From Clostridia bacterium (GTDB lineage Bacteria > Bacillota > Clostridia > UMGS1840): a stretch of DNA of 64,000 nt. A model generated the notes under the pieces. That model was given only the letters and a program-made list of their open reading frames with translations, had not been told where the DNA came from and did no database searches. Below, in pieces: positions 1,593-50,178 of this stretch. A program made the translations under genes and the position numbers. Each line of letters starts with the position of its first letter. The stretch's first letter is position 1. The DNA lies in NCBI GenBank assembly GCA_045631485.1, contig JAZQUU010000028.1, positions 241-64,240 on the forward strand, written 5' to 3'.

Positions 1593-4337
1593 ATGAGGAA
1601 AATTTTTATTTCTATGGCTGTTATCATTTTGGCAATAATTTCACTTTTTGCAGTCAGCGTAAATGCGGCAGTTACGGAAGTGAAAAATATAGAAAATGTG
1701 GGAATATATACAGCAACTGAAAATGTAGGCTTCGAAGTTACGAGAGATAATGCAGGTGAAGAATATATTGCTTTTAAGGTATATGATATTGATGGGAACC
1801 TGATAAAAGAAAGTAGATTCACTGCGAAGCAACAAAAACAAAAATTTTCCCTCGGATATTTTAAAAATGGTTGGTATCGTGTGAAAATATTCGTAAATGA
1901 TCAGGAAGAGAATATTTTTGCATCTTTTTCAGTTGTTGATGAAAGAGATGGATTTTACTATGATTCACCCTTTGCGATTATGCACCTTGGACGATTGGTA
2001 GGTAGCAGCAAGGATACAGCTTATGCTGAGGCTTTGGCAAAATTGTCGGTAGGGACTGTTCGTACCGATGAGATTGCAGATATTCATATGAGTGCTCGTC
2101 CTTACGAAAAATACAATACCAATCTCACTAATGTTGGAATCAGACCCATGGCAACGGTATCCACGAACTATACTTATCCCAACTCAACAACCACAGGAAA
2201 CGTGGGTGGATTTACCGAGCTTTTTGATGTTTATGATGTGCATAAAACCATGGTGAAAGCATATAACGGGAAAGTTCCATATTGGGAACTGATCAATGAG
2301 CCGGATATCAATAAATCTGTAAGTGCAGATGCTTTTGCATCTTGGTATAAAGCAGCCGCAATTGGTATCAGTGATGCTCAGCCGAGTGCGATGAAATCAT
2401 TTGGTGGTTTATGCGTCACAAATTCTCAGTATTTCGATATTATTATGCAAAATGGTATTATGGATTATTCCGATACCATCAATGTTCATAGTCATGCAAC
2501 AGACAGTGCTGACGGAATCAATTACAACGGAACCTTAGCAGAGATGGGCAAGGTGTATTCTGCATTGTACGCTGATAATGCTCCGTTGTGGAGTACTGAG
2601 TCAGGTGTTAGAATGACTGTTGTTGATGGAACGAACGAGCTTCCTTCAGAGGAATCATTAAGAAGACAGGCAAGATATATGATCACTTCATTTATGGAGA
2701 CTGTCGGTGAATATGGTATTAACAAGAATTTTTGGTTTTTAACCTCTCATTATGTATCTGAAGGCCCTGAGTACGGAACATTCAGTAAAAATGATATGCC
2801 GTATCCTGCAATCAACAGTTTGAATGTTTTGACTGATAACTTAAAAGATGGAAAATTATTAGGTCGTTTGAATGGCGTTGAAGATACCAAAGGATACTTT
2901 TTTGATTGTGGAGATTATGATGCAGCAGTTATCTGGAGAACCAAAGAAGGTAGAAAGAATATCCAGTTACATGCAAATGATAATGTTACAATCGTGGGAC
3001 TTGTAGGAAATGCGAATACCAAGGTGTATTCTCCTTCCACAGGCAGAGTAAGTTTTTATGTAACCGAAGATCCGATTCTGGTAAGATTTTCTCAAAAAGC
3101 AGATTGTGAAGATTATGTTAAAACTGCATTCGAGACCAGATTACCGGTTGCACACCCGTATACCGATACTGCAGAACGTGTAGTATTGCAACAGATATGG
3201 GATCCGAAACCGGATATTTACAATGGAGTGTATTCCTTAAAAAATAATACTGTGTATACAGTAAGATGCAGAATATATAACTTTAATGATAATACAGTAG
3301 ATGGAACTTTTGGATTCCGTAACAGTGATGGAATCATTGTTTCAGGGGAAACAACAGGTGCTTTTAGTGTAGCAGGTAATTCTTATGTTGAAGAAGAAAT
3401 TACAGTGGAAGTATCAAATAACGGAACCAATTTTTCCTTTGAAAACCTAGAATTTTACGCAGAGACTAGGGCAGGATGTGAAATTGCACCAAGTATAAGC
3501 CAAGTGCGTATACAAAATGAGCAAAATACCAGCGGAGCAGATATTACCGTTATTGAAGATGCGAACTATTATTCCAGTTCCAGACAAGGAGATTACTATA
3601 GTTCACAGGTTTCTCCCAGCACAAGCAACAGTTGGATAGGTAATAGCGTGAAATATTCGGTAAGAAATTTGAAAAATTCTGATGTTCCTGCGCAATTATA
3701 TATTTATCAGTCGAACTTGACTGTTAATTCTGATAGTGAAGGTATGTATTTCAAATTTAATTGTGATACGTTCCCTTCTTCTTTCGAAAAAGCATATTTC
3801 GATGTTATGGTTTTTGGTGATGAAGGTTCGTTCTATGCAAATAACCTGTTCGAATTTAATTCTTCTACCAAAAATAAAAATGTTTTTATCCCTTGGAGTG
3901 CATTTGTTCATTCCGGTGGAAATGTGGGTATTACAGATCCGTCTAAAATCAATAGGTTTGGTTTCGGCTTTGATTTAAGCAGCTCCACAGGATATAGTTT
4001 GGCTTTTACCATCAGCGATATGGGCACCTATAAGTCTCAGGTTGCAACAAACACCACAACACTTATTAATGTTTCGGGAATTGCAGATGGTGAGGAATAC
4101 AGATTAAAGGATGCAAAAGTAGAAATCGAATCTTATGATCCCGAGAATACTGAAATCTATGTGAATTATGAGAAAATAGAGTGTGATGCCGATGAAAGCG
4201 GCGTATACAAGTTGGATTTTTCAGAATACGAACCTGGAGATTACAGTTTGATTGTGGCTGTATCCGATGAATTTAACAAAAAGAATTATAAGAAGATAGA
4301 TTTTAGTCTTATGCAGGATCTGATATATTTCAGATAG
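1593..4337 (+). CDS. Secreted clan GH-A (GH39/GH5-like) glycoside hydrolase with accessory beta-sandwich and Ig-like domains
   Basis: Signal peptide; putative acid/base motif WELINEPD and nucleophile motif LWSTESG; RBS GGGAGG. Paralog of 6444..9677. Confidence 0.7.
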   Translation: MRKIFISMAVIILAIISLFAVSVNAAVTEVKNIENVGIYTATENVGFEVTRDNAGEEYIAFKVYDIDGNLIKESRFTAKQQKQKFSLGYFKNGWYRVKIFVNDQEENIFASFSVVDERDGFYYDSPFAIMHLGRLVGSSKDTAYAEALAKLSVGTVRTDEIADIHMSARPYEKYNTNLTNVGIRPMATVSTNYTYPNSTTTGNVGGFTELFDVYDVHKTMVKAYNGKVPYWELINEPDINKSVSADAFASWYKAAAIGISDAQPSAMKSFGGLCVTNSQYFDIIMQNGIMDYSDTINVHSHATDSADGINYNGTLAEMGKVYSALYADNAPLWSTESGVRMTVVDGTNELPSEESLRRQARYMITSFMETVGEYGINKNFWFLTSHYVSEGPEYGTFSKNDMPYPAINSLNVLTDNLKDGKLLGRLNGVEDTKGYFFDCGDYDAAVIWRTKEGRKNIQLHANDNVTIVGLVGNANTKVYSPSTGRVSFYVTEDPILVRFSQKADCEDYVKTAFETRLPVAHPYTDTAERVVLQQIWDPKPDIYNGVYSLKNNTVYTVRCRIYNFNDNTVDGTFGFRNSDGIIVSGETTGAFSVAGNSYVEEEITVEVSNNGTNFSFENLEFYAETRAGCEIAPSISQVRIQNEQNTSGADITVIEDANYYSSSRQGDYYSSQVSPSTSNSWIGNSVKYSVRNLKNSDVPAQLYIYQSNLTVNSDSEGMYFKFNCDTFPSSFEKAYFDVMVFGDEGSFYANNLFEFNSSTKNKNVFIPWSAFVHSGGNVGITDPSKINRFGFGFDLSSSTGYSLAFTISDMGTYKSQVATNTTTLINVSGIADGEEYRLKDAKVEIESYDPENTEIYVNYEKIECDADESGVYKLDFSEYEPGDYSLIVAVSDEFNKKNYKKIDFSLMQDLIYFR

Positions 4338-9693: not shown

Positions 9694-11304
9694 ATGAGAA
9701 AGATAATATGTTTATGTCTGTCTTTGGTCTTAATGTCCTTGTCTACAACAGTTCATGCAAGCCTTGATATCATCAATACTCAAGGAAGCATAACGATAAA
9801 AGGCATGGTATCTTCAGGAGAGCTGGACTATGCAACAGAAGCAACTGTTACAGTGTTTGATGAAGATGGAAATCTTAATTACATAGATGTCATTCCTGTT
9901 TCAAAGGATGGAACCGCAGAATTTTTGTATGATAATCAGGGTAATAGCGGTGATTATGAATTTTATGTTGATATCAGCGCGTTTAATATTATCGAAAGAG
10001 CAACTCTCGAGGGCTTTGTTGGCAAAGATTATTGGGATTTGTTTATCAGCAGAATGTCAGGTTTTGCGCAAAATAGAGCTTATGACGATTTAAAAACAAA
10101 TCTGTTTGCTGAAAAAGAAAGAGGATTGCTGGAATTCGACGATTCTTTGTATAACTCATTGACAGATAAAGATACTGTTTGGGTAGTTATGTCGGAAGAC
10201 TGTGCGGCACCATATCAGAATGTAGATGAGATTCTGAAGGGATTTCAACAGGCGGTATATCTCTGCAAAATGAACGAAGCAAATGACGCTGCAGCTTGGT
10301 ATGAATTCATGAAAGAATCCCTTGGCTCTGTGATTCCTCTTGGGGAAAGCGGTATTGTAATTGATGAATATACCGTAGAAACCAAGACTGCTGTTTTGGC
10401 ATCAATTGCAAACACAGATTATTCCAAAACAACAGATGCTAGCGAGGCATTGCTGAAGGCAGGGCTTTTTAAGGCGATTGAAAATGCATATCATTATACT
10501 GATGTGAAATCGGCGGTGAAAGCTTATTACAATGCGGGATATATTACTGCAAACCCGCAAAACATCACTGAAAATCAGTATAAAAACGCAAAGGGATCCC
10601 GTGTGAACAGTTACAGCGATGTGAACAGTTTATTTGTAACTTCCGGCACTATTCCTAATGGTGGTTCCAATATTGAAACCTCATTTGGTGGCGGAGCTGT
10701 ATCCCATGCCCCTGCAGTTTTACAACCCATTTCAGAAACTGTTAGCGAGCAAAGCGGTAAGATGACTTTTTCCGATATGGAAGATGCAAAATGGGCTCTC
10801 AAACAAGTAGAGCTGCTCTATGAAAAAGGAATCATCAACGGAACCGGTGATGGCATGTACAGTCCTCATAAAAACGTTACTCGAGCTGAAATGGCAAAAA
10901 TGCTGGTGATTCTTGGTGGGTATGATATTGTTCCTTGTGATATTCCGTTTAACGATGTTGACCCCAATGCCTGGTATTATCCATATATCTGCACAGCATA
11001 TCAAAATGGAATATTTAATGGAATCAGTGGAAATGAATTTGGGGTTGACAGAAATATCACACGTCAGGAACAGGCTGTAGTACTATATCGATTGCTTGCA
11101 CAAAAGCAGGTCGAAATGTCGCAAGATTCAAAGGGTTTTGCAGATGAAGAAAATATCGGTTCATGGGCTCGTGATGCAGTATATTCTCTTCGTCAAAAAG
11201 GTATTGTATCCGGTAGAGGCGGAAATCTGTTTTGTCCGAATGAAGCGGTAACAAGAGCAGAAGCTGCTGTTTTTATAGCGAATGCTTATAGTCACATTTT
11301 ATAA
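9694..11304 (+). CDS. Cell-surface protein with three C-terminal SLH domains
   Basis: Signal peptide; three SLH repeats (e.g. FSDMEDAKWA...GIINGTGDGMYSPHKNVTRAEMAKML) after a Gly/Ser-rich linker. Confidence 0.85.
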   Translation: MRKIICLCLSLVLMSLSTTVHASLDIINTQGSITIKGMVSSGELDYATEATVTVFDEDGNLNYIDVIPVSKDGTAEFLYDNQGNSGDYEFYVDISAFNIIERATLEGFVGKDYWDLFISRMSGFAQNRAYDDLKTNLFAEKERGLLEFDDSLYNSLTDKDTVWVVMSEDCAAPYQNVDEILKGFQQAVYLCKMNEANDAAAWYEFMKESLGSVIPLGESGIVIDEYTVETKTAVLASIANTDYSKTTDASEALLKAGLFKAIENAYHYTDVKSAVKAYYNAGYITANPQNITENQYKNAKGSRVNSYSDVNSLFVTSGTIPNGGSNIETSFGGGAVSHAPAVLQPISETVSEQSGKMTFSDMEDAKWALKQVELLYEKGIINGTGDGMYSPHKNVTRAEMAKMLVILGGYDIVPCDIPFNDVDPNAWYYPYICTAYQNGIFNGISGNEFGVDRNITRQEQAVVLYRLLAQKQVEMSQDSKGFADEENIGSWARDAVYSLRQKGIVSGRGGNLFCPNEAVTRAEAAVFIANAYSHIL

Positions 11305-39583: not shown

Positions 39584-39829
39584 TTATTTCCTCCGGAAGG
39601 GGAAAAATAATGTTTTGAATAACAAACATATCAATCGAAAAATCATTCTGATACCTAAAATAAAATATATCAGTATCTTAAGAAAAATGTTTTGGCGTTT
39701 CATAATTACTGTGTGTTTTAGTTCTCCGCATCCTTCGCACAATTCCAAATGTTTGGATATGATATATTTTTTCTCACTGTCATTGGTGTGATTCATTCGA
39801 TTTAAGCAGTCTAAGCAAAATTCAGCCAT
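39584..39829 (-). CDS. Small hypothetical protein with two CxxC motifs and a C-terminal hydrophobic helix
   Basis: MAEFCLDC...LCEGC; start ATG 39829 or 39847. Confidence 0.6.
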   Translation of the reverse strand: MAEFCLDCLNRMNHTNDSEKKYIISKHLELCEGCGELKHTVIMKRQNIFLKILIYFILGIRMIFRLICLLFKTLFFPFRRK

Positions 39830-39936
39830 GGCACAAATCCTTTTCATGTTTAAATATTTCTATATAAGTATATATCTATATATGGGAATTGTCAATAGGG
39901 TATATATTTATTAGAATATACCTAAGAGGTGAGACG

Positions 39937-40140
39937 ATGATTAAGCTTACGCTGGAATCCGTGCTGAATAGCCGTAATATTTCCAGATATGAACTGTCAA
40001 AACGGACAGGAATCAGGTACCATATTATTGATAATTATTATAAAAACAGAGTGACCCGATATGATAGCTTTGTTTTGGACAAAATCTGTACTGCATTGGA
40101 TTGTGAAATTTGTGATATCATTACATTTGAAAAAGAATAG
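39937..40140 (+). CDS. Cro/C1-type HTH regulator
   Basis: ATG 39937 after GAGGTGA; ISRYELSKRTGI...LDKICTALDC pattern; followed by a terminator at 40139-40176. Confidence 0.82.
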   Translation: MIKLTLESVLNSRNISRYELSKRTGIRYHIIDNYYKNRVTRYDSFVLDKICTALDCEICDIITFEKE

Positions 40141-40260
40141 CACTTGCTTATGTTACATAGGCAAGTGCTTTTTTTTCGTTTACGTTCATAATAGATGCAT
40201 CAACTTTAAATGAAATCGCCTCCTTTTATCAAACTATATCATAAAATTTAATACTTTTCA

Positions 40261-40459
40261 ATGAAGTATCGCCTTTGGCGATATGATGCATTTGCTTTGT
40301 AAATATGATGTTGCTCCCTTTGGTCACAATGATGCAATGTTTGCCAAATGTGCCGTAAGGCACACATCATTAGCGAAAGCGTCATCATTGGCAACGCCAA
40401 CATCATTTGCCGAAGGCAAACATCATTGAAAAAAGCACTTCCGAAGAAGTGCTTTTTTC
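40261..40459. repeat. Hairpin-array element A (ATGATG / CATCAT motif)
   Basis: ATGATG at 40283, 40305 and 40329 (ATGAAG at 40261); CATCAT at 40365, 40383, 40401 and 40421; most inter-motif segments are short hairpins; ends in a terminator-like palindrome. Confidence 0.8.
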
Positions 40460-40495
40460 TGGCTTTCGTGTACATAATAGATGCAAGATATTTTA

Positions 40496-40662
40496 GCTAA
40501 ATTTTGCACTATCGTGCAAAGCGAAATTATTGCTTTGCAATAGCTAAATTAAATTCGCCAAAGCTGACCGAAGGTCAATTTAGCGTGCGTAGCACATTTA
40601 GCTCGTGCAAGCGAATTTAGCTAAAAAAAGACAGATTTCTTTGAGGTAATCTGTCTTTTTTT
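40496..40662. repeat. Hairpin-array element B (GCTAAAT / ATTTAGC motif)
   Basis: GCTAAAT at 40496 and 40543 (GCGAAAT at 40521); ATTTAGC at 40578, 40596 and 40615; short hairpins between motifs; ends in a terminator-like palindrome. Confidence 0.8.
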
Positions 40663-40663
40663 C

Positions 40664-40737
40664 TGGAGGCGCCACCCAGATTCGAACTGAGGATCAAGGT
40701 GTTGCAGACCGATGCCTTACCACTTGGCTATGGCGCA
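40664..40737 (-). tRNA. tRNA-Cys(GCA), atypical
   Basis: Cloverleaf with CTGCAAC loop, U73 and encoded CCA; U1.C72 and C28.U42 mismatches. Confidence 0.85.
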
Positions 40738-40761
40738 ATATGAAATTGTTTTTTAGTTGAC

Positions 40762-40789
40762 AAAAGGCACAATATTCATTGTGCCTTTT
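40762..40789. terminator. Terminator-like hairpin between tRNA-Gly and tRNA-Cys
   Basis: AAAAGGCACAAT-ATTC-ATTGTGCCTTTT. Confidence 0.65.
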
Positions 40790-40795
40790 ATCAAA

Positions 40796-40870
40796 TGGAG
40801 CGGAAGACGAGATTCGAACTCGCGACGTTCACCTTGGCAAGGTGACGCTCTACCACTGAGCCACTCCCGC
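40796..40870 (-). tRNA. tRNA-Gly(GCC)
   Basis: Canonical cloverleaf, TTGCCAA loop, encoded CCA. Confidence 0.97.
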
Positions 40871-40892
40871 ATATTATGTTTGAAAAAGCTAA

Positions 40893-40968
40893 TGGTGCCT
40901 CCGGGTGGAATCGAACCGCCGACACAGGGATTTTCAGTCCCTTGCTCTACCGACTGAGCTACAGAGGC
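40893..40968 (-). tRNA. tRNA-Phe(GAA)
   Basis: Cloverleaf, CTGAAAA loop, CCA; one C.A mismatch in the T stem. Confidence 0.95.
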
Positions 40969-41010
40969 AAATGTTTGTCACGGCTCAATCTCCAAGGGAA
41001 AAAAGAAAAG

Positions 41011-41087
41011 TGGCGACCTGGAAGGGGATCGAACCCTCGACCTCTAGCGTGACAGGCTAGCGTTCTAACCAGCTGAACTACCAGGCC
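41011..41087 (-). tRNA. tRNA-Asp(GTC)
   Basis: Canonical cloverleaf, CTGTCAC loop, CCA. Confidence 0.97.
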
Positions 41088-41442: not shown

Positions 41443-41850
41443 ATGATTGCAACAGGCTTAACCAGAAGAATTGATAAACTGGGCAGAATCATGGTGCCCA
41501 AAGCCATCCGTAACGAATATGCGATTGCAGAACATACGCCGGTGGAAATTTATACCCGCGGTGAATTTATTGTGATTAAAAAATACACGGTTTCCGACGG
41601 AGACATTCAGTCCCGTTATCATACCGATAATGTGGGACGAATTGTGCTTCCCAAAGCCATCCGCAAACAGTTCGGTCTGGCAGAATGCGATGATTATGTG
41701 GAAATTTTTACCGAGGATAAAAGCATTCTTTTAAAGAAATATGAAAGAAGCTGCGTCATTTGCGGAAATGCGGAGGGGCTGATTCAGATTCGGGATAAAA
41801 AAATCTGCAAGGCGTGTGCGGAAGAAATTGTGAGAAAAGCAGGGAACTGA
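41443..41850 (+). CDS. AbrB/MazE/SpoVT-family regulator with two tandem AbrB domains and a C-terminal CxxC-CxxC
   Basis: RRIDKLGRIMVPKAIR and TDNVGRIVLPKAIR; CVIC...CKAC tail. Confidence 0.85.
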   Translation: MIATGLTRRIDKLGRIMVPKAIRNEYAIAEHTPVEIYTRGEFIVIKKYTVSDGDIQSRYHTDNVGRIVLPKAIRKQFGLAECDDYVEIFTEDKSILLKKYERSCVICGNAEGLIQIRDKKICKACAEEIVRKAGN

Positions 41851-47064: not shown

Positions 47065-50000
47065 ATGTACGAAAAAGTGTCTGCAAATTTAAACTTTGTG
47101 GAAAGAGAAAAGAAGACAGAAGCTTTTTGGAAAGAGAATAAAATCTTTGAAAAAAGTATCGACACCCGTAAAGAAGGGGAAACCTTCACTTTTTATGACG
47201 GTCCCCCCACAGCAAACGGCAAACCTCATATCGGGCACGTGTTAACCCGTGTTATCAAAGATATGATTCCCCGTTATAAAACCATGAAAGGTTACCACGT
47301 GCTTCGTAAAGCAGGTTGGGATACCCATGGGTTACCCGTTGAGCTGGAAGTGGAAAAGAAACTGGGCTTAGACGGCAAAGAACAGATTGAAGAATATGGC
47401 TTGGAACCCTTTATTAAAGAATGTAAAGAAAGCGTTTGGAAATATAAAGGAATGTGGGAAGACTTTTCCGGAACCGTTGGTTTCTGGGCAGATATGGACG
47501 ACCCCTACGTTACCTACACCAACGTTTTTATTGAATCCGAATGGTGGGCATTAAAACAAATCTGGGACAAAGGCTTGTTATACAAAGGCTTTAAAATTGT
47601 ACCCTATTGCCCCCGTTGCGGAACTCCTTTATCCAGCCACGAAGTTGCTCAGGGCTATAAAGATGTAAAAGAAAAATCTGCGATCGCAAAATTCAGGGTA
47701 AAAGGTGCAGATGATGAATAAATTTTAGCTTGGACCACCACCCCCTGGACTTTACCCTCCAACGTGGCACTTTGCGTAAACCCCGATGAAACTTATGTGA
47801 AAATTGAAACCGAAGGTGTGAAATACATCTTAGCGGAAGCTTTGGTTGCAAGCGTGATTGAAACCGAATACACCGTGCTGGAATCCTATATCGGGAAAGA
47901 TTTGGAATACAAAGAATACGAACCCCTCTTTGATTTTGCAAAACCCGACAAAAAAGCATACTATGTGGTTTGTGATCACTATGTTACCTTAACCGACGGT
48001 ACCGGTATCGTTCATATTGCACCTGCATTCGGGGAAGACGATGCTCAGGTGGGCAGAAAATATGACCTGCCTTTCGTTCAGTTGGTAAACTCCCGTGGGG
48101 AAATGACCGAAGAAACTCCCTGGGCAGGTATGTTCTGTAAAGATGCAGACAAAGAAGTGTTTATTGACTTAGATAAAAGAGGTCTGCTCTTTAAGGCTCT
48201 GCCTTTTGAACATTCCTATCCCTTCTGTTGGAGATGTGATACTCCCTTAATCTACTATGCAAGAGACTCCTGGTTCATCAAAATGACCGCGGTGAAAGAT
48301 AATCTCATTAAAAACAACAACACCGTAAACTGGATTCCCGAATCCATCGGGAAAGGTCGTTTTGGCGACTGGCTCAACAACGTGCAGGATTGGGGCGTAA
48401 GCCGTGACCGTTACTGGGGTACTCCCCTAAATATCTGGCAGTGTGAGTGCGGACACCGTCACGCAATCGGAAGCATCGAAGAATTAAAGAGCATGTCTGA
48501 TAACTGTCCCGACGAAATTGAATTGCATCGTCCCTTCATTGATGCGGTAACCATCAAATGTCCCGAATGTGGAAAACAGATGACCCGTGTGAAAGAAGTT
48601 ATCGACTGTTGGTTTGACTCCGGTGCAATGCCTTTCGCACAGTGGCACTATCCCTTTGAAAACAAAGAAATTTTCGAAGAAAACTTCCCTGCAGACTTTA
48701 TCAGTGAAGCGGTGGACCAGACCCGTGGTTGGTTCTATTCTCTGCTTGCGATTTCTACCTTGATTTTTGATAAAGCACCTTATAAAAATGTTATCGTGTT
48801 AGGTCACGTGCAGGATGAAAACGGTCAGAAAATGTCTAAATCCAAAGGCAATGCCGTTGACCCCTTTGATGCATTGGCAGAACACGGTGCGGATGCAATC
48901 CGTTGGTATTTCTATTCCAACTCTGCTCCCTGGTTACCTAACAAATTCCATAAAGGTGCGGTAACCGAAGGTCAGAGAAAGTTTATGGGTACTCTCTGGA
49001 ATACCTATGCATTCTTTGTGCTCTATGCAAACATTGATGGCTTTGATGCCACCAAATACAGTCTGGAATATGACAAACTGCCCGTGATGGACAAGTGGTT
49101 ATTATCCAAATTGAATTCCTTAACCGAAACTGTGGACACTTATTTAGGTGACTACAAAATCACCGAAACCTCCCGTGTGCTGGACGATTTTGTGGATGAA
49201 CTGAGTAACTGGTATGTTCGCCGTAGCAGAGAGCGTTTCTGGGGCAAAGATATGACTCAGGATAAAATCAATGCCTATATGACTTTATACACCGCATTGG
49301 TAACCTTATCCAAATTATCTGCTCCCATGATTCCCTTTATGGCAGAAGATATTTACAGAAACTTAGTTTGCTCCATTGATAAAACTGCTCCCGAAAGCGT
49401 GCATCTTTGTGATTTCCCCGTGGCAAACACCGCTTGGATTGATAAAGATTTAGAAGAAAAAATGGAGCAGGTGGTTGACATTGTTGTGTTGGGCCGTGCT
49501 GCAAGAAACTCTGCCAACATCAAAAACCGTCAGCCTATCGGAAAAATGTTTGTGAAAGCAGAAAATGCTCTGCCCGAATACTTCCGTGATATTATTGCAG
49601 AAGAATTGAATGTAAAAGAAGTGGTATTTACCGACAGCGTAAAAGATTTCACTTCTTATTCCTTCAAGCCGCAACTTAAAACTTTAGGTCCCCGTTTTGG
49701 TAAACAGCTTGGCGAATTGCGCACCATTTTATCCGGGTTAGACGGCATTGCCGCTATGGACGAATTGGAAACCAAAGGTACTTTGACCATCACCTTAGGC
49801 GGTAACGAAGAAGCATTAACCAAAGAGGATTTACTCATTGAATCCGCTCAGGTTCCCGGTTACGAATCCAACTCCGATTACGGCATCACCGTGGTGTTGG
49901 ATACCAACTTAACCGAAGAGCTTTTGGAAGAAGGCTTTGTAAGAGAAGTGGTTTCCAAAATTCAGACTATGAGAAAAGATTCCGGCTTCGAAGTGACTGA

Positions 50001-50178
50001 CCATATTATCGTTAGCGTTTCGGGTAACGACAAAGTGGCAGACATTATGAAGAGAAACGAAGCAACCATCAAAGAAGATGTGTTGGCGGAAGAAATCACC
50101 TACGGAACTTTGGTGGGTGAAGGCAAGCATTGGAGCGTAAACGGCGAAGAAGTTGATTTTGCCGTGAAACAGTGCTAG
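47065..50178 (+). CDS. ileS: Isoleucyl-tRNA synthetase (long, type 2-like), interrupted by one in-frame TAA at 47719-47721
   Basis: PHIGH and GWDTHGLP upstream of the stop; [16 protein letters not shown] across it; DCWFDSG and KMSKS downstream; both listed ORFs share one frame. Confidence 0.9.

Follow-up and report, generated by a model that had tools for sequence, protein, structure and literature searches.

The DNA analysed here, referred to as the window, is a stretch of 64,000 nucleotides (nt) from contig JAZQUU010000028.1 of a Clostridia bacterium (assembly GCA_045631485.1), and it contains, between a small XRE-family gene and a tRNA operon, two adjacent hairpin arrays, elements A and B, which are the subject of this report. 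In each element a short word recurs between small hairpins along one arm and its reverse complement recurs along a second, inverted arm, the arms being named here as proximal or distal to the tRNA genes. Read along the plus strand, the order is a minus-strand zinc-ribbon/transmembrane gene, the XRE gene with its terminator, a junction box, element A, a terminator, a second box, element B, a terminator and tRNA-Cys. The last of these is the final gene of a minus-strand Asp-Phe-Gly-Cys operon with a promoter-like site at 41160->41132, and its encoded CCA end directly adjoins the terminator of element B. The array region has no coding potential; an open reading frame (ORF) of 75 amino acids (aa) that crosses element A on the minus strand (40475-40248) was rejected, the word spacing being out of frame and homologues lacking. 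The features are as follows.

39937..40140, plus strand: XRE-family HTH_26 gene, 67 aa (Pfam HTH_26, E = 3.8e-16)
40139..40177, unstranded: terminator hairpin and T-run of the XRE gene (repeat and terminator analysis)
40187..40199, plus strand: junction box copy 1, CATAATAGATGCA (exact repeat)
40200..40254, unstranded: A-specific leader, to which the leader of the orthologue L005 is unrelated
~40255-40459: element A, whole, with 4+4 words
40255..40336, plus strand: tRNA-distal arm of A
40337..40345, unstranded: centre strand of helix Pc in A, ATGTTTGCC, pairing with GGCAAACAT at 40415-40423 (9/9 complementary)
40349..40434, minus strand: tRNA-proximal arm of A, a Gut-1-like unit when read on the minus strand
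40428..40459, unstranded: two-way intrinsic terminator of A, GAAAAAAGCACTTC / CGAA / GAAGTGCTTTTTTC (inverted repeat, 14/14)
40453..40462, plus strand: 10-nt direct repeat TTTTTTCTGG, with a second copy at 40657-40666
40473..40485, plus strand: junction box copy 2, CATAATAGATGCA (exact repeat)
~40491-40662: element B, whole
40491..40549, plus strand: tRNA-distal arm of B
40550..40558, unstranded: centre strand of helix Pc in B, TAAATTCGC, pairing with GCGAATTTA at 40611-40619 (9/9)
40565..40629, minus strand: tRNA-proximal arm of B
40623..40662, unstranded: two-way intrinsic terminator common to B and the tRNA operon (15 base pair (bp) perfect stem, A7/T7 flanks)
40664..41087, minus strand: tRNA-Cys, Gly, Phe and Asp operon

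On the tRNA-sense (minus) strand an element runs from terminator hairpin, T-run and CA through the proximal arm and the centre to the distal arm and TGAAAA. The proximal arm consists of a 7-nt word plus a hairpin of 4-7 bp, repeated four times (three times in element B of the window), and the distal arm of the anti-word plus a hairpin, repeated three to four times. In element A, the distal arm carries ATGATG at 40283, 40305 and 40329 (spacing 22 and 24) and a degenerate fourth word, ATGAAG, at 40261-40266; its hairpins lie at 40267-40283 (TATCGCC/TTT/GGCGATA), at 40290-40304 (ATTTGC/TTT/GTAAAT, with one G.T pair) and, weakly formed, at 40311-40329. The proximal arm carries CATCAT at 40365, 40383, 40401 and 40421 (spacing 18, 18 and 20), followed by TGAAAAAA, and has hairpins at 40349-40364, 40372-40382, 40388-40400 and 40406-40420. 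Element B has the distal words GCTAAAT (40496), GCGAAAT (40521-40527) and GCTAAAT (40543), with hairpins at 40503-40520 and 40528-40542; its proximal words are ATTTAGC at 40578, 40596 and 40615, then an A-run, with hairpins at 40565-40577, 40585-40595 and 40603-40614.

A preliminary description made from the letters alone had recognised two arrays of the same plan with different words, hairpins and terminal palindromes, and these are real by a check of positions, by their folding and by a generic scan. Both elements fold far better than shuffled sequences on either strand (z = -5.9 to -7.4). The generic scan, which required a 6-mer in at least three copies and then its reverse complement in at least three copies, all within 200 nt, found element A as its sole match in the 64-kb window, and gave no match in 30 Markov-1 random 64-kb sequences or in 105 kb of unrelated XRE-homologue loci. 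The 13-mer CATAATAGATGCA that had been placed ahead of both elements has exact copies at 40187 and 40473 and no others in the window, and the A-run/T-run palindromes are both terminator-like. Some details are amended: the ATGATG/CATCAT copies of A are as listed, a fourth, degenerate left word (ATGAAG) having been missed; GCTAAAT/ATTTAGC stands for B, apart from the middle left word, GCGAAAT; the left hairpins of A are present, the third (40311-40329) being poor; and the central segments TTTGCCAAA and TTCGCCAAA are present, each of them one strand of the conserved helix Pc.

A comparison set of 45 loci (designated L) was collected via the XRE protein, with one genome per species; all 45 come from metagenome-assembled genomes (MAGs) of gut, mostly ruminant-gut, Clostridia/Oscillospiraceae. 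A search of Clostridia MAGs for further copies had been suggested, and arrays of the same architecture, differing in their words, do occur in about a dozen of these loci, as follows.

L007: ATGAAAT / ATTTCAT
L026: ATGAAG / CTTCAT
L003, L004: CGATAT / ATATCG
L018: GTGATAT / ATATAAC
L034: GATGAAATC / GATTTCATC
L005: ATGATG / CATCAT (orthologue of A)
L003, L015, L017, L020, L029, L031: GCTAAAT / ATTTAGC (B type)

Most full arrays adjoin a convergent tRNA 3' end (Cys, Leu, Arg-CCG or Thr) via a terminator; those of L017 and L029 lie near tRNA-Gln, and in L007, L015 and L034 no tRNA gene was called in the fetched stretch. A further B-type array, L201, is on an IMG/VR contig, in a host-like region adjoining tRNA-Thr/Tyr, Mrr and GmrSD genes. 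It is the only true array among the matches listed in two viral word-pattern scans (three spaced copies of ATTTAGC or CATCATT), those listed being mostly ordinary tandem repeats. The B-type 18-mer GCAAAGCGAAATTATTGC gave chance matches only in a metagenome scan and the first viral scan, and the extended junction box had no match among viral contigs; BLAST of the whole region against plasmid and phage collections found no match except one terminator-like 40-mer. An exact-protein look-up of the window XRE protein returned no record. Look-ups with seven XRE homologues produced L099, whose contig ends inside element A, and L100, which is the array locus of L003 resampled; the remaining loci from these look-ups were without arrays. 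A custom word-agnostic covariance model was abandoned, as MAFFT failed on the variable hairpins and RNAalifold retrieved the first hairpin only.

Seven word types occur in 19 arrays (GUGAAAU, GUGAUAU, AUGAAAU, AUGAUGU, AUGAAG, GCGAUAU and GCUAAAU); they are identical within an arm, are one-step neighbours of each other within approximately RYGAWRU, and match no sequence of the neighbouring tRNAs. The variable word of the preliminary description is therefore retained, in seven types on one plan, with the qualification that its variation is not arbitrary. Conversely, the hairpins inside one array are all mutually different, and they differ even between the orthologues, element A and L005. Selection on structure, as originally proposed, is evident in eight B-type arrays, where pairing holds in 92% of hairpin cells and both sides have changed in 15 of 35 pairs; none of 500 shuffles equalled this covariation, and slid controls paired at 26–44%. 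The stems are almost purely Watson-Crick (~1% G.U), so both strands can fold. In the B distal arm some 50 nt are nearly invariant in seven of eight homologues (in L201 the arm is truncated).

Helix Pc is formed by the last five bases of the first word together with the 5' half of the first hairpin, which are complementary to the centre segment. In every four-unit array, whatever the word type, its partner lies 72–79 nt downstream; for element B of the window, with three units, the distance is 54 nt. All 11 pairs covary across 18 arrays; the partner was picked as the best match in an 80-nt region, which inflates the percentage paired but affects neither the constant distance nor the covariation. 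L201 has a compensatory variant, TAAATTCAC/GTGAATTTA. For 11 of 12 proximal domains the minimum-free-energy fold includes Pc. This helix is in competition with the first hairpin, and it encloses the proximal arm in a multi-branch domain of constant length, 92–99 nt. Pairing of word with anti-word in the manner of a ladder is likewise possible and appears in whole-element folds. It is not clearly selected, because there is no covariation within a type, because GCGAAAT, the middle left word of the B type in all homologues, gives a conserved G.A mismatch at one rung, because the arms of L018 are non-complementary (GTGATAT vs ATATAAC) and because single-arm relatives exist in the published family discussed below. 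On the same three latter grounds, the earlier idea that all copies changed together holds for the uniformity of the words and not for any required pairing of left with right.

At gathering thresholds, Rfam reports four tRNA genes only in the window. Among the relatives, scored at permissive thresholds, the Gut-1 family (RF01706, gathering score 50 bits) emerges, matched by one arm of each homologue: the L007 element, which lies downstream of an XRE homologue, has the junction box and has no tRNA gene in its 8.2-kb locus, scores 53.3 bits, followed by L018 (42 and 36.8 for its two arms, on opposite strands), L034 (39.3), L003 (33.6) and L201 (31.3). Element A scores 18.3 bits (E = 0.67, 40342-40428, minus strand) and element B has no match at E <= 10. 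The preliminary description had been unable to name a family; the Rfam comparison provides one, and a match of this kind, which that description had itself named as grounds for refutation, removes much of the novelty.

The Gut-1 motif was defined in human-gut sequences as a probable non-coding RNA (Weinberg et al. 2010, Genome Biol 11:R31; PMC2864571), and has been a functionally orphan candidate for a structured RNA ever since, described in one line and represented by a model of 77 nt. Its consensus has four (G)UGAAAU words split by three hairpins and preceded by YYYYYCA, and in the Rfam model only the middle three word bases (GAA/GAU) are unpaired between hairpins. On the minus strand, the proximal arm of A has AATGATG four times with four hairpins and that of B has GCTAAAT three times with three; a pyrimidine run and CA precede the first word in both (A, TTTTTTCA-ATGATG; B, TTTTTTTA-GCTAAAT); and the eight B-type sequences show compensatory change in their hairpins. 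The window words are variants of the RUGAWAU-type word of Gut-1, that of B being without the GA core. Much of the remaining architecture can be read from the 2010 Stockholm alignment (PMC2864571), which contains the words GUGAUAU and GUGAAAU, a conserved YYYYYCA ahead of the first word, an inverted arm of four AUAUCAC or AUUUCAC in the unmodelled flank, and also single-arm members. One member, oriented like the tRNA gene before it, comes directly after the tRNA-CCA and a terminator; at least four contigs with different flanks carry arrays that are nearly identical down to their hairpins and to a GC-rich hairpin ahead of them; and one contig has up to four tandem copies at 240-nt spacing (PMC2864571), so the twin arrangement is not special. 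In the literature searched we found no later work on Gut-1, and no paper describing the second arm, the Pc helix or the word range.

Judged by sequence and predicted structure, A and B are very probably tandem word-variant members of the Gut-1 class. With AUGAUG(U) and GCUAAAU in place of the seed words GUGAAAU/GUGAUAU, they are a divergent variant of a known orphan family rather than a new category, and this difference in words explains why A reaches only 18 bits and B is unscored. The covarying long-range helix Pc is a new feature.

As to function, we tentatively propose RNA display, that is, a structured RNA showing several copies of a short single-stranded word, a proposal that we would sooner doubt than assert when it is taken alone. 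The element would act as a folded single strand, most likely RNA, produced either when transcription runs through the terminator of the tRNA operon or by a weak promoter that the element itself has on the opposite strand. Its hairpins would serve as clamps that fix several short purine-rich linkers (core GAA/GAU/UAA) in single-stranded geometry. Linkers so held would be a multivalent platform, or a sponge, for a partner that recognises the word, for instance an oligomeric RNA-binding protein, while the complementary distal arm and the alternative between Pc and the first hairpin would give masked and exposed states. A platform is proposed because identical linkers lie between otherwise unconstrained clamp hairpins, in a closed domain of fixed size with an attached terminator, and the template for the mechanism is provided by sponges of the CsrB/RsmZ type. 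Gut-1-class identity and RNA display taken together are given, as a compromise value, a probability of about 0.45.

The strand evidence conflicts, with a slight lean toward the tRNA sense. In favour of the plus strand are sufficient room for a promoter, a conserved box with a -10-like CATAAT, a terminator after each array and two internal G.T pairs. The minus strand equals the published Gut-1 orientation, since the published member that follows a tRNA-CCA lies on the tRNA strand, and some published members have a U-run at the hairpin in this sense only. Furthermore, Pc has 11 G.U against 3 A.C cells in this sense, a weak sign, and the curated B-type hairpins divide 8 against 3 for this strand, again a weak lean. 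A separate G.U versus A.C count in the hairpins is confounded by word ends, which create U.G on the sense strand of each arm. Several observations weigh against the combined identity and mechanism: A and B are under the Rfam gathering threshold; no candidate binding protein has been identified; on the plus strand the -10-like CATAAT stands alone without a -35, and the orthologue L005 is without the box; on the tRNA-sense strand the array begins 0–2 nt past a strong terminator, which leaves read-through as its sole means of transcription; and the near-purity of Watson-Crick pairing, which leaves both strands folding equally, is unusual for a constraint on RNA alone.

That last point also serves the main rival, which we consider rather unlikely, namely that the arrays are non-autonomous selfish or domesticated mobile elements of a REPIN/BIME- or MITE-like kind, acting as folded single-stranded DNA, with word and hairpin as the unit recognised by an enzyme that is provided in trans (HUH/RAYT-type or other) and with copies gathering behind terminators and tRNA genes. 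Array number between XRE and tRNA-Cys does vary from none to three in related MAGs (none in L016, one in L004 and L005, two in the window, two and a remnant in L003). Relative to L005, element B is an insertion or deletion, since the direct repeats TTTTTTCTGG flank 204 nt (box 2, element B and terminator) that are missing from that orthologous locus. B-type arrays sit beside tRNA-Cys, tRNA-Arg, tRNA-Gln and tRNA-Thr/Tyr in different genomes, and the 2010 alignment offers the near-identical arrays on at least four differently flanked contigs and the four tandem copies in one. Contigs break in the box (L001) or ~90 nt further, inside element A (L099), and arrays border variable or defence islands (a Schlafen/AlbA_2 gene in L007; Mrr and GmrSD in L201). 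Nevertheless, no transposase, HUH/RAYT enzyme or integrase occurs within ~10 kb either side in the window (Pfam scan, roughly 28.5-51 kb), where a HUH/RAYT transposase had been thought worth seeking, nor within the flanks examined elsewhere. The hairpins of one array all differ, unlike REP copies; clear target duplications and the usual kind of terminal inverted repeat are absent; plasmid and phage collections gave no matches, and the one array among the viral-scan matches listed (L201) is in a host-like region; and the B distal arm is near-invariant across species, as expected of a conserved gene.

Gut-1-type arrays could also form a programmable recognition system, in which each 7-nt word would co-evolve with a dedicated partner, Pc and the first hairpin would form a switch by which the words are exposed or hidden, and A and B would be orthogonal channels. 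The partner might be a protein that binds RNA or single-stranded DNA in a word-specific manner, or else an enzyme by which the cassette is copied or moved beside tRNA genes; we think this reading unlikely, a step below the mobile element. In a related reading, the identical complementary rungs could drive intermolecular higher-order RNA assembly.

Two other rivals explain less of the evidence. It is decidedly unlikely that the arrays are passive terminator accessories, whose stable hairpins insulate convergent units or shield 3' ends from exonucleases with no specific partner. Their position exactly between convergent units, abutting a tRNA CCA end, their two-way terminators and the freedom of their hairpin sequences to vary all suit such a role, which nonetheless leaves unexplained a word that is the same within an array and is held to ~RYGAWRU over seven types, the covarying Pc at fixed distance in a constant 92–99-nt domain, and the ~50 invariant bases of B-type arrays; moreover, at about half of the XRE-tRNA junctions that can be compared there is just a plain terminator, the array being absent. 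An array of double-stranded-DNA sites (iteron-, operator- or recombinase arm-site-like) read by the XRE regulator or an integrase is very improbable, for despite the 18–24 bp spacing (roughly two helical turns), the inverted arms, the adjacent HTH gene and a word uniform within the arm even where arms are non-complementary (L018), the palindromic spacers covary to pair, which double-stranded binding does not need, XRE proteins 73–82% identical adjoin arrays with different words, XRE homologues elsewhere are without arrays, and there is no integrase.

The junction ahead of the arrays is itself conserved. A ~25-nt junction of T-run, GGCTTTCRYGTW and CATAATAGATGCA is kept across species, at 40163-40199 and 40447-40485 in the window, twice in L007 (4395-4432 and 4640-4676), and in L026 (4232-4269), L028 (4390-4427) and the contig end of L001; what follows it in L007 and L028 is no array but island DNA of unrelated sequence. 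The junction could be a promoter, a recombination site or an RNA 3' end. A sporulation-sigma or sigma-54 promoter in the box was rejected as a misfit on inspection, and a tRNA 3'-end remnant for want of a T-arm. Between the first box and the words of A, the leader region (40200-40261) has on its minus strand a strong promoter-like TTGAAA-17-TGaTATAGT (40261->40233), then AAAAGGAGG, with no ORF after it; this site is not in the orthologue L005 and is present in L099, a 99%-identical contig.

The 3' half of the XRE terminator with its T-run (AAGTGCTTTTTT...) is homologous to the terminator of element A. More generally, the terminator hairpins attached to arrays belong to few conserved sequence types common to different loci and word types, for example GCACTTC..GAAGTGC, GACAGATTTC..GAAATCTGTC, CGACTTGT..ACAAGTCG and GCGTACTGA..TCAGTACGC, seen in the window (40428-40459 and 40623-40662) and in L003, L004, L007, L015, L017, L018, L020, L026 and L031; they look like exchangeable modules. 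Other repeats accompany the relatives. Tandem heptads (GTGAATA / GGGAATA / GTGAAGA) sit just upstream of the tRNA-facing terminator where no hairpin array lies (L007, 4322-4360; L016, ~2495-2530; L024, ~4255-4290); degenerate arrays in L030 (4300-4480) and L031 (4275-4370) are broken by REP-like GTAGGG...CCCTAC palindromes and CCTCCCACCGCTAAAGCGGTCCCCCCTCC repeats; and in L201 two copies of a ~230-nt repeat (10320-10713), with no Rfam match at E < 0.01, directly follow the B-type array.

The XRE gene is a neighbour of the arrays and not an obligate partner, because arrays are absent from the loci of XRE homologues in other contexts, those that lack a tRNA gene. It forms a divergent pair (39937-40140, plus strand) with an 87-aa protein (39584-39847, minus strand) that has a zinc ribbon (CxxC...CxxC) and, at its C terminus, a hydrophobic helix. 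More than 45 gut Clostridia loci contain this pair, in varied neighbourhoods and often adjoining tRNA genes of differing identity, which suggests a small mobile or often-relocated module. In L102, phage lysis genes (Amidase_2 and holin, 1262-2740) lie directly downstream of the XRE homologue, which shows that the XRE junction can also house a prophage. The genes for about 10 kb on either side in the window are housekeeping (UPRTase, permease, NIF3, M20 peptidase, PHP-domain protein, APH kinase, nagB/nagA-like and IleRS). Past the tRNA operon, the product of the gene at 41443-41850 joins an AbrB/MazE-like SpoVT domain to a zinc ribbon at its C terminus, and the synteny of this gene is kept in L100. 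An isoleucyl/class-I tRNA synthetase is seemingly split into adjacent ORFs (47065-47721 and 47764-50178), which could be a frameshift, an assembly error or a true split.

Among known systems, a CRISPR array is rejected, as it had been from the start, since the repeats are 6–7 nt rather than 24–48, what would be spacers are hairpins complementary to themselves, and the two arms run in inverted orientation. The type III antitoxin ToxI resembles the arrays in having short RNA repeats with an A-rich site (three array words contain AAAU) followed by a terminator; however, ToxI consists of identical ~36-nt direct repeats directly upstream of a toxin gene, whereas in the arrays every hairpin is different, the two arms have inverted orientation and no toxin gene adjoins them. 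A ToxIN-like toxin-antitoxin system was accordingly rejected: there is no endoribonuclease toxin ORF, the neighbours being tRNA genes and XRE. CsrB/RsmZ sponge RNAs, with their GGA motifs, also present a repeated single-stranded motif on variable hairpins with a terminator, a likeness of analogy only, for their motif is another one, and the arrays vary the word between members and have a complementary second arm.

REP, BIME and REPIN elements, mobilised by RAYT enzymes of the HUH Y1 type, are likewise short extragenic hairpins in inverted pairs, clustered behind genes, with a conserved flanking oligonucleotide, present in many copies and able to fold as single strands. Within one genome REP hairpins keep a common sequence, but in the arrays it is the linker word alone that is conserved, and the hairpins all differ; the arrays are without the GTAG-type unit signature, and the Pfam scan around them found no Y1/HUH gene and no nearby RAYT gene.

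The closest comparison remains Gut-1. The window words (AUGAUG and GCUAAAU) differ from its GUGAAAU/GUGAUAU, the relatives found here are from ruminant-gut-type MAGs whereas published Gut-1 is from human gut, and the Rfam model is without the second arm, the Pc helix and the word range. Shared with Gut-1 are a 7-nt purine-rich word with a short hairpin in three to four repeats, a pyrimidine run and CA ahead, hairpins supported by covariation and an origin in gut Clostridia-type sequences, as well as the tandem copies, inverted second arm and tRNA adjacency that are visible in the published flanks. From this comparison, the real Gut-1-type unit measures ~170–200 nt, with two inverted arms and its own terminator; its word varies within a constrained family, and its first hairpin has a competitor in a covarying long-range helix. 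The class extends to ruminant-gut Clostridia, where it is typically right behind tRNA genes and in variable number, and its word range and architecture account for the current Rfam model missing many members. These features give testable hypotheses for an orphan family, one of a switchable display platform and the other of a mobile element acting as a single strand.

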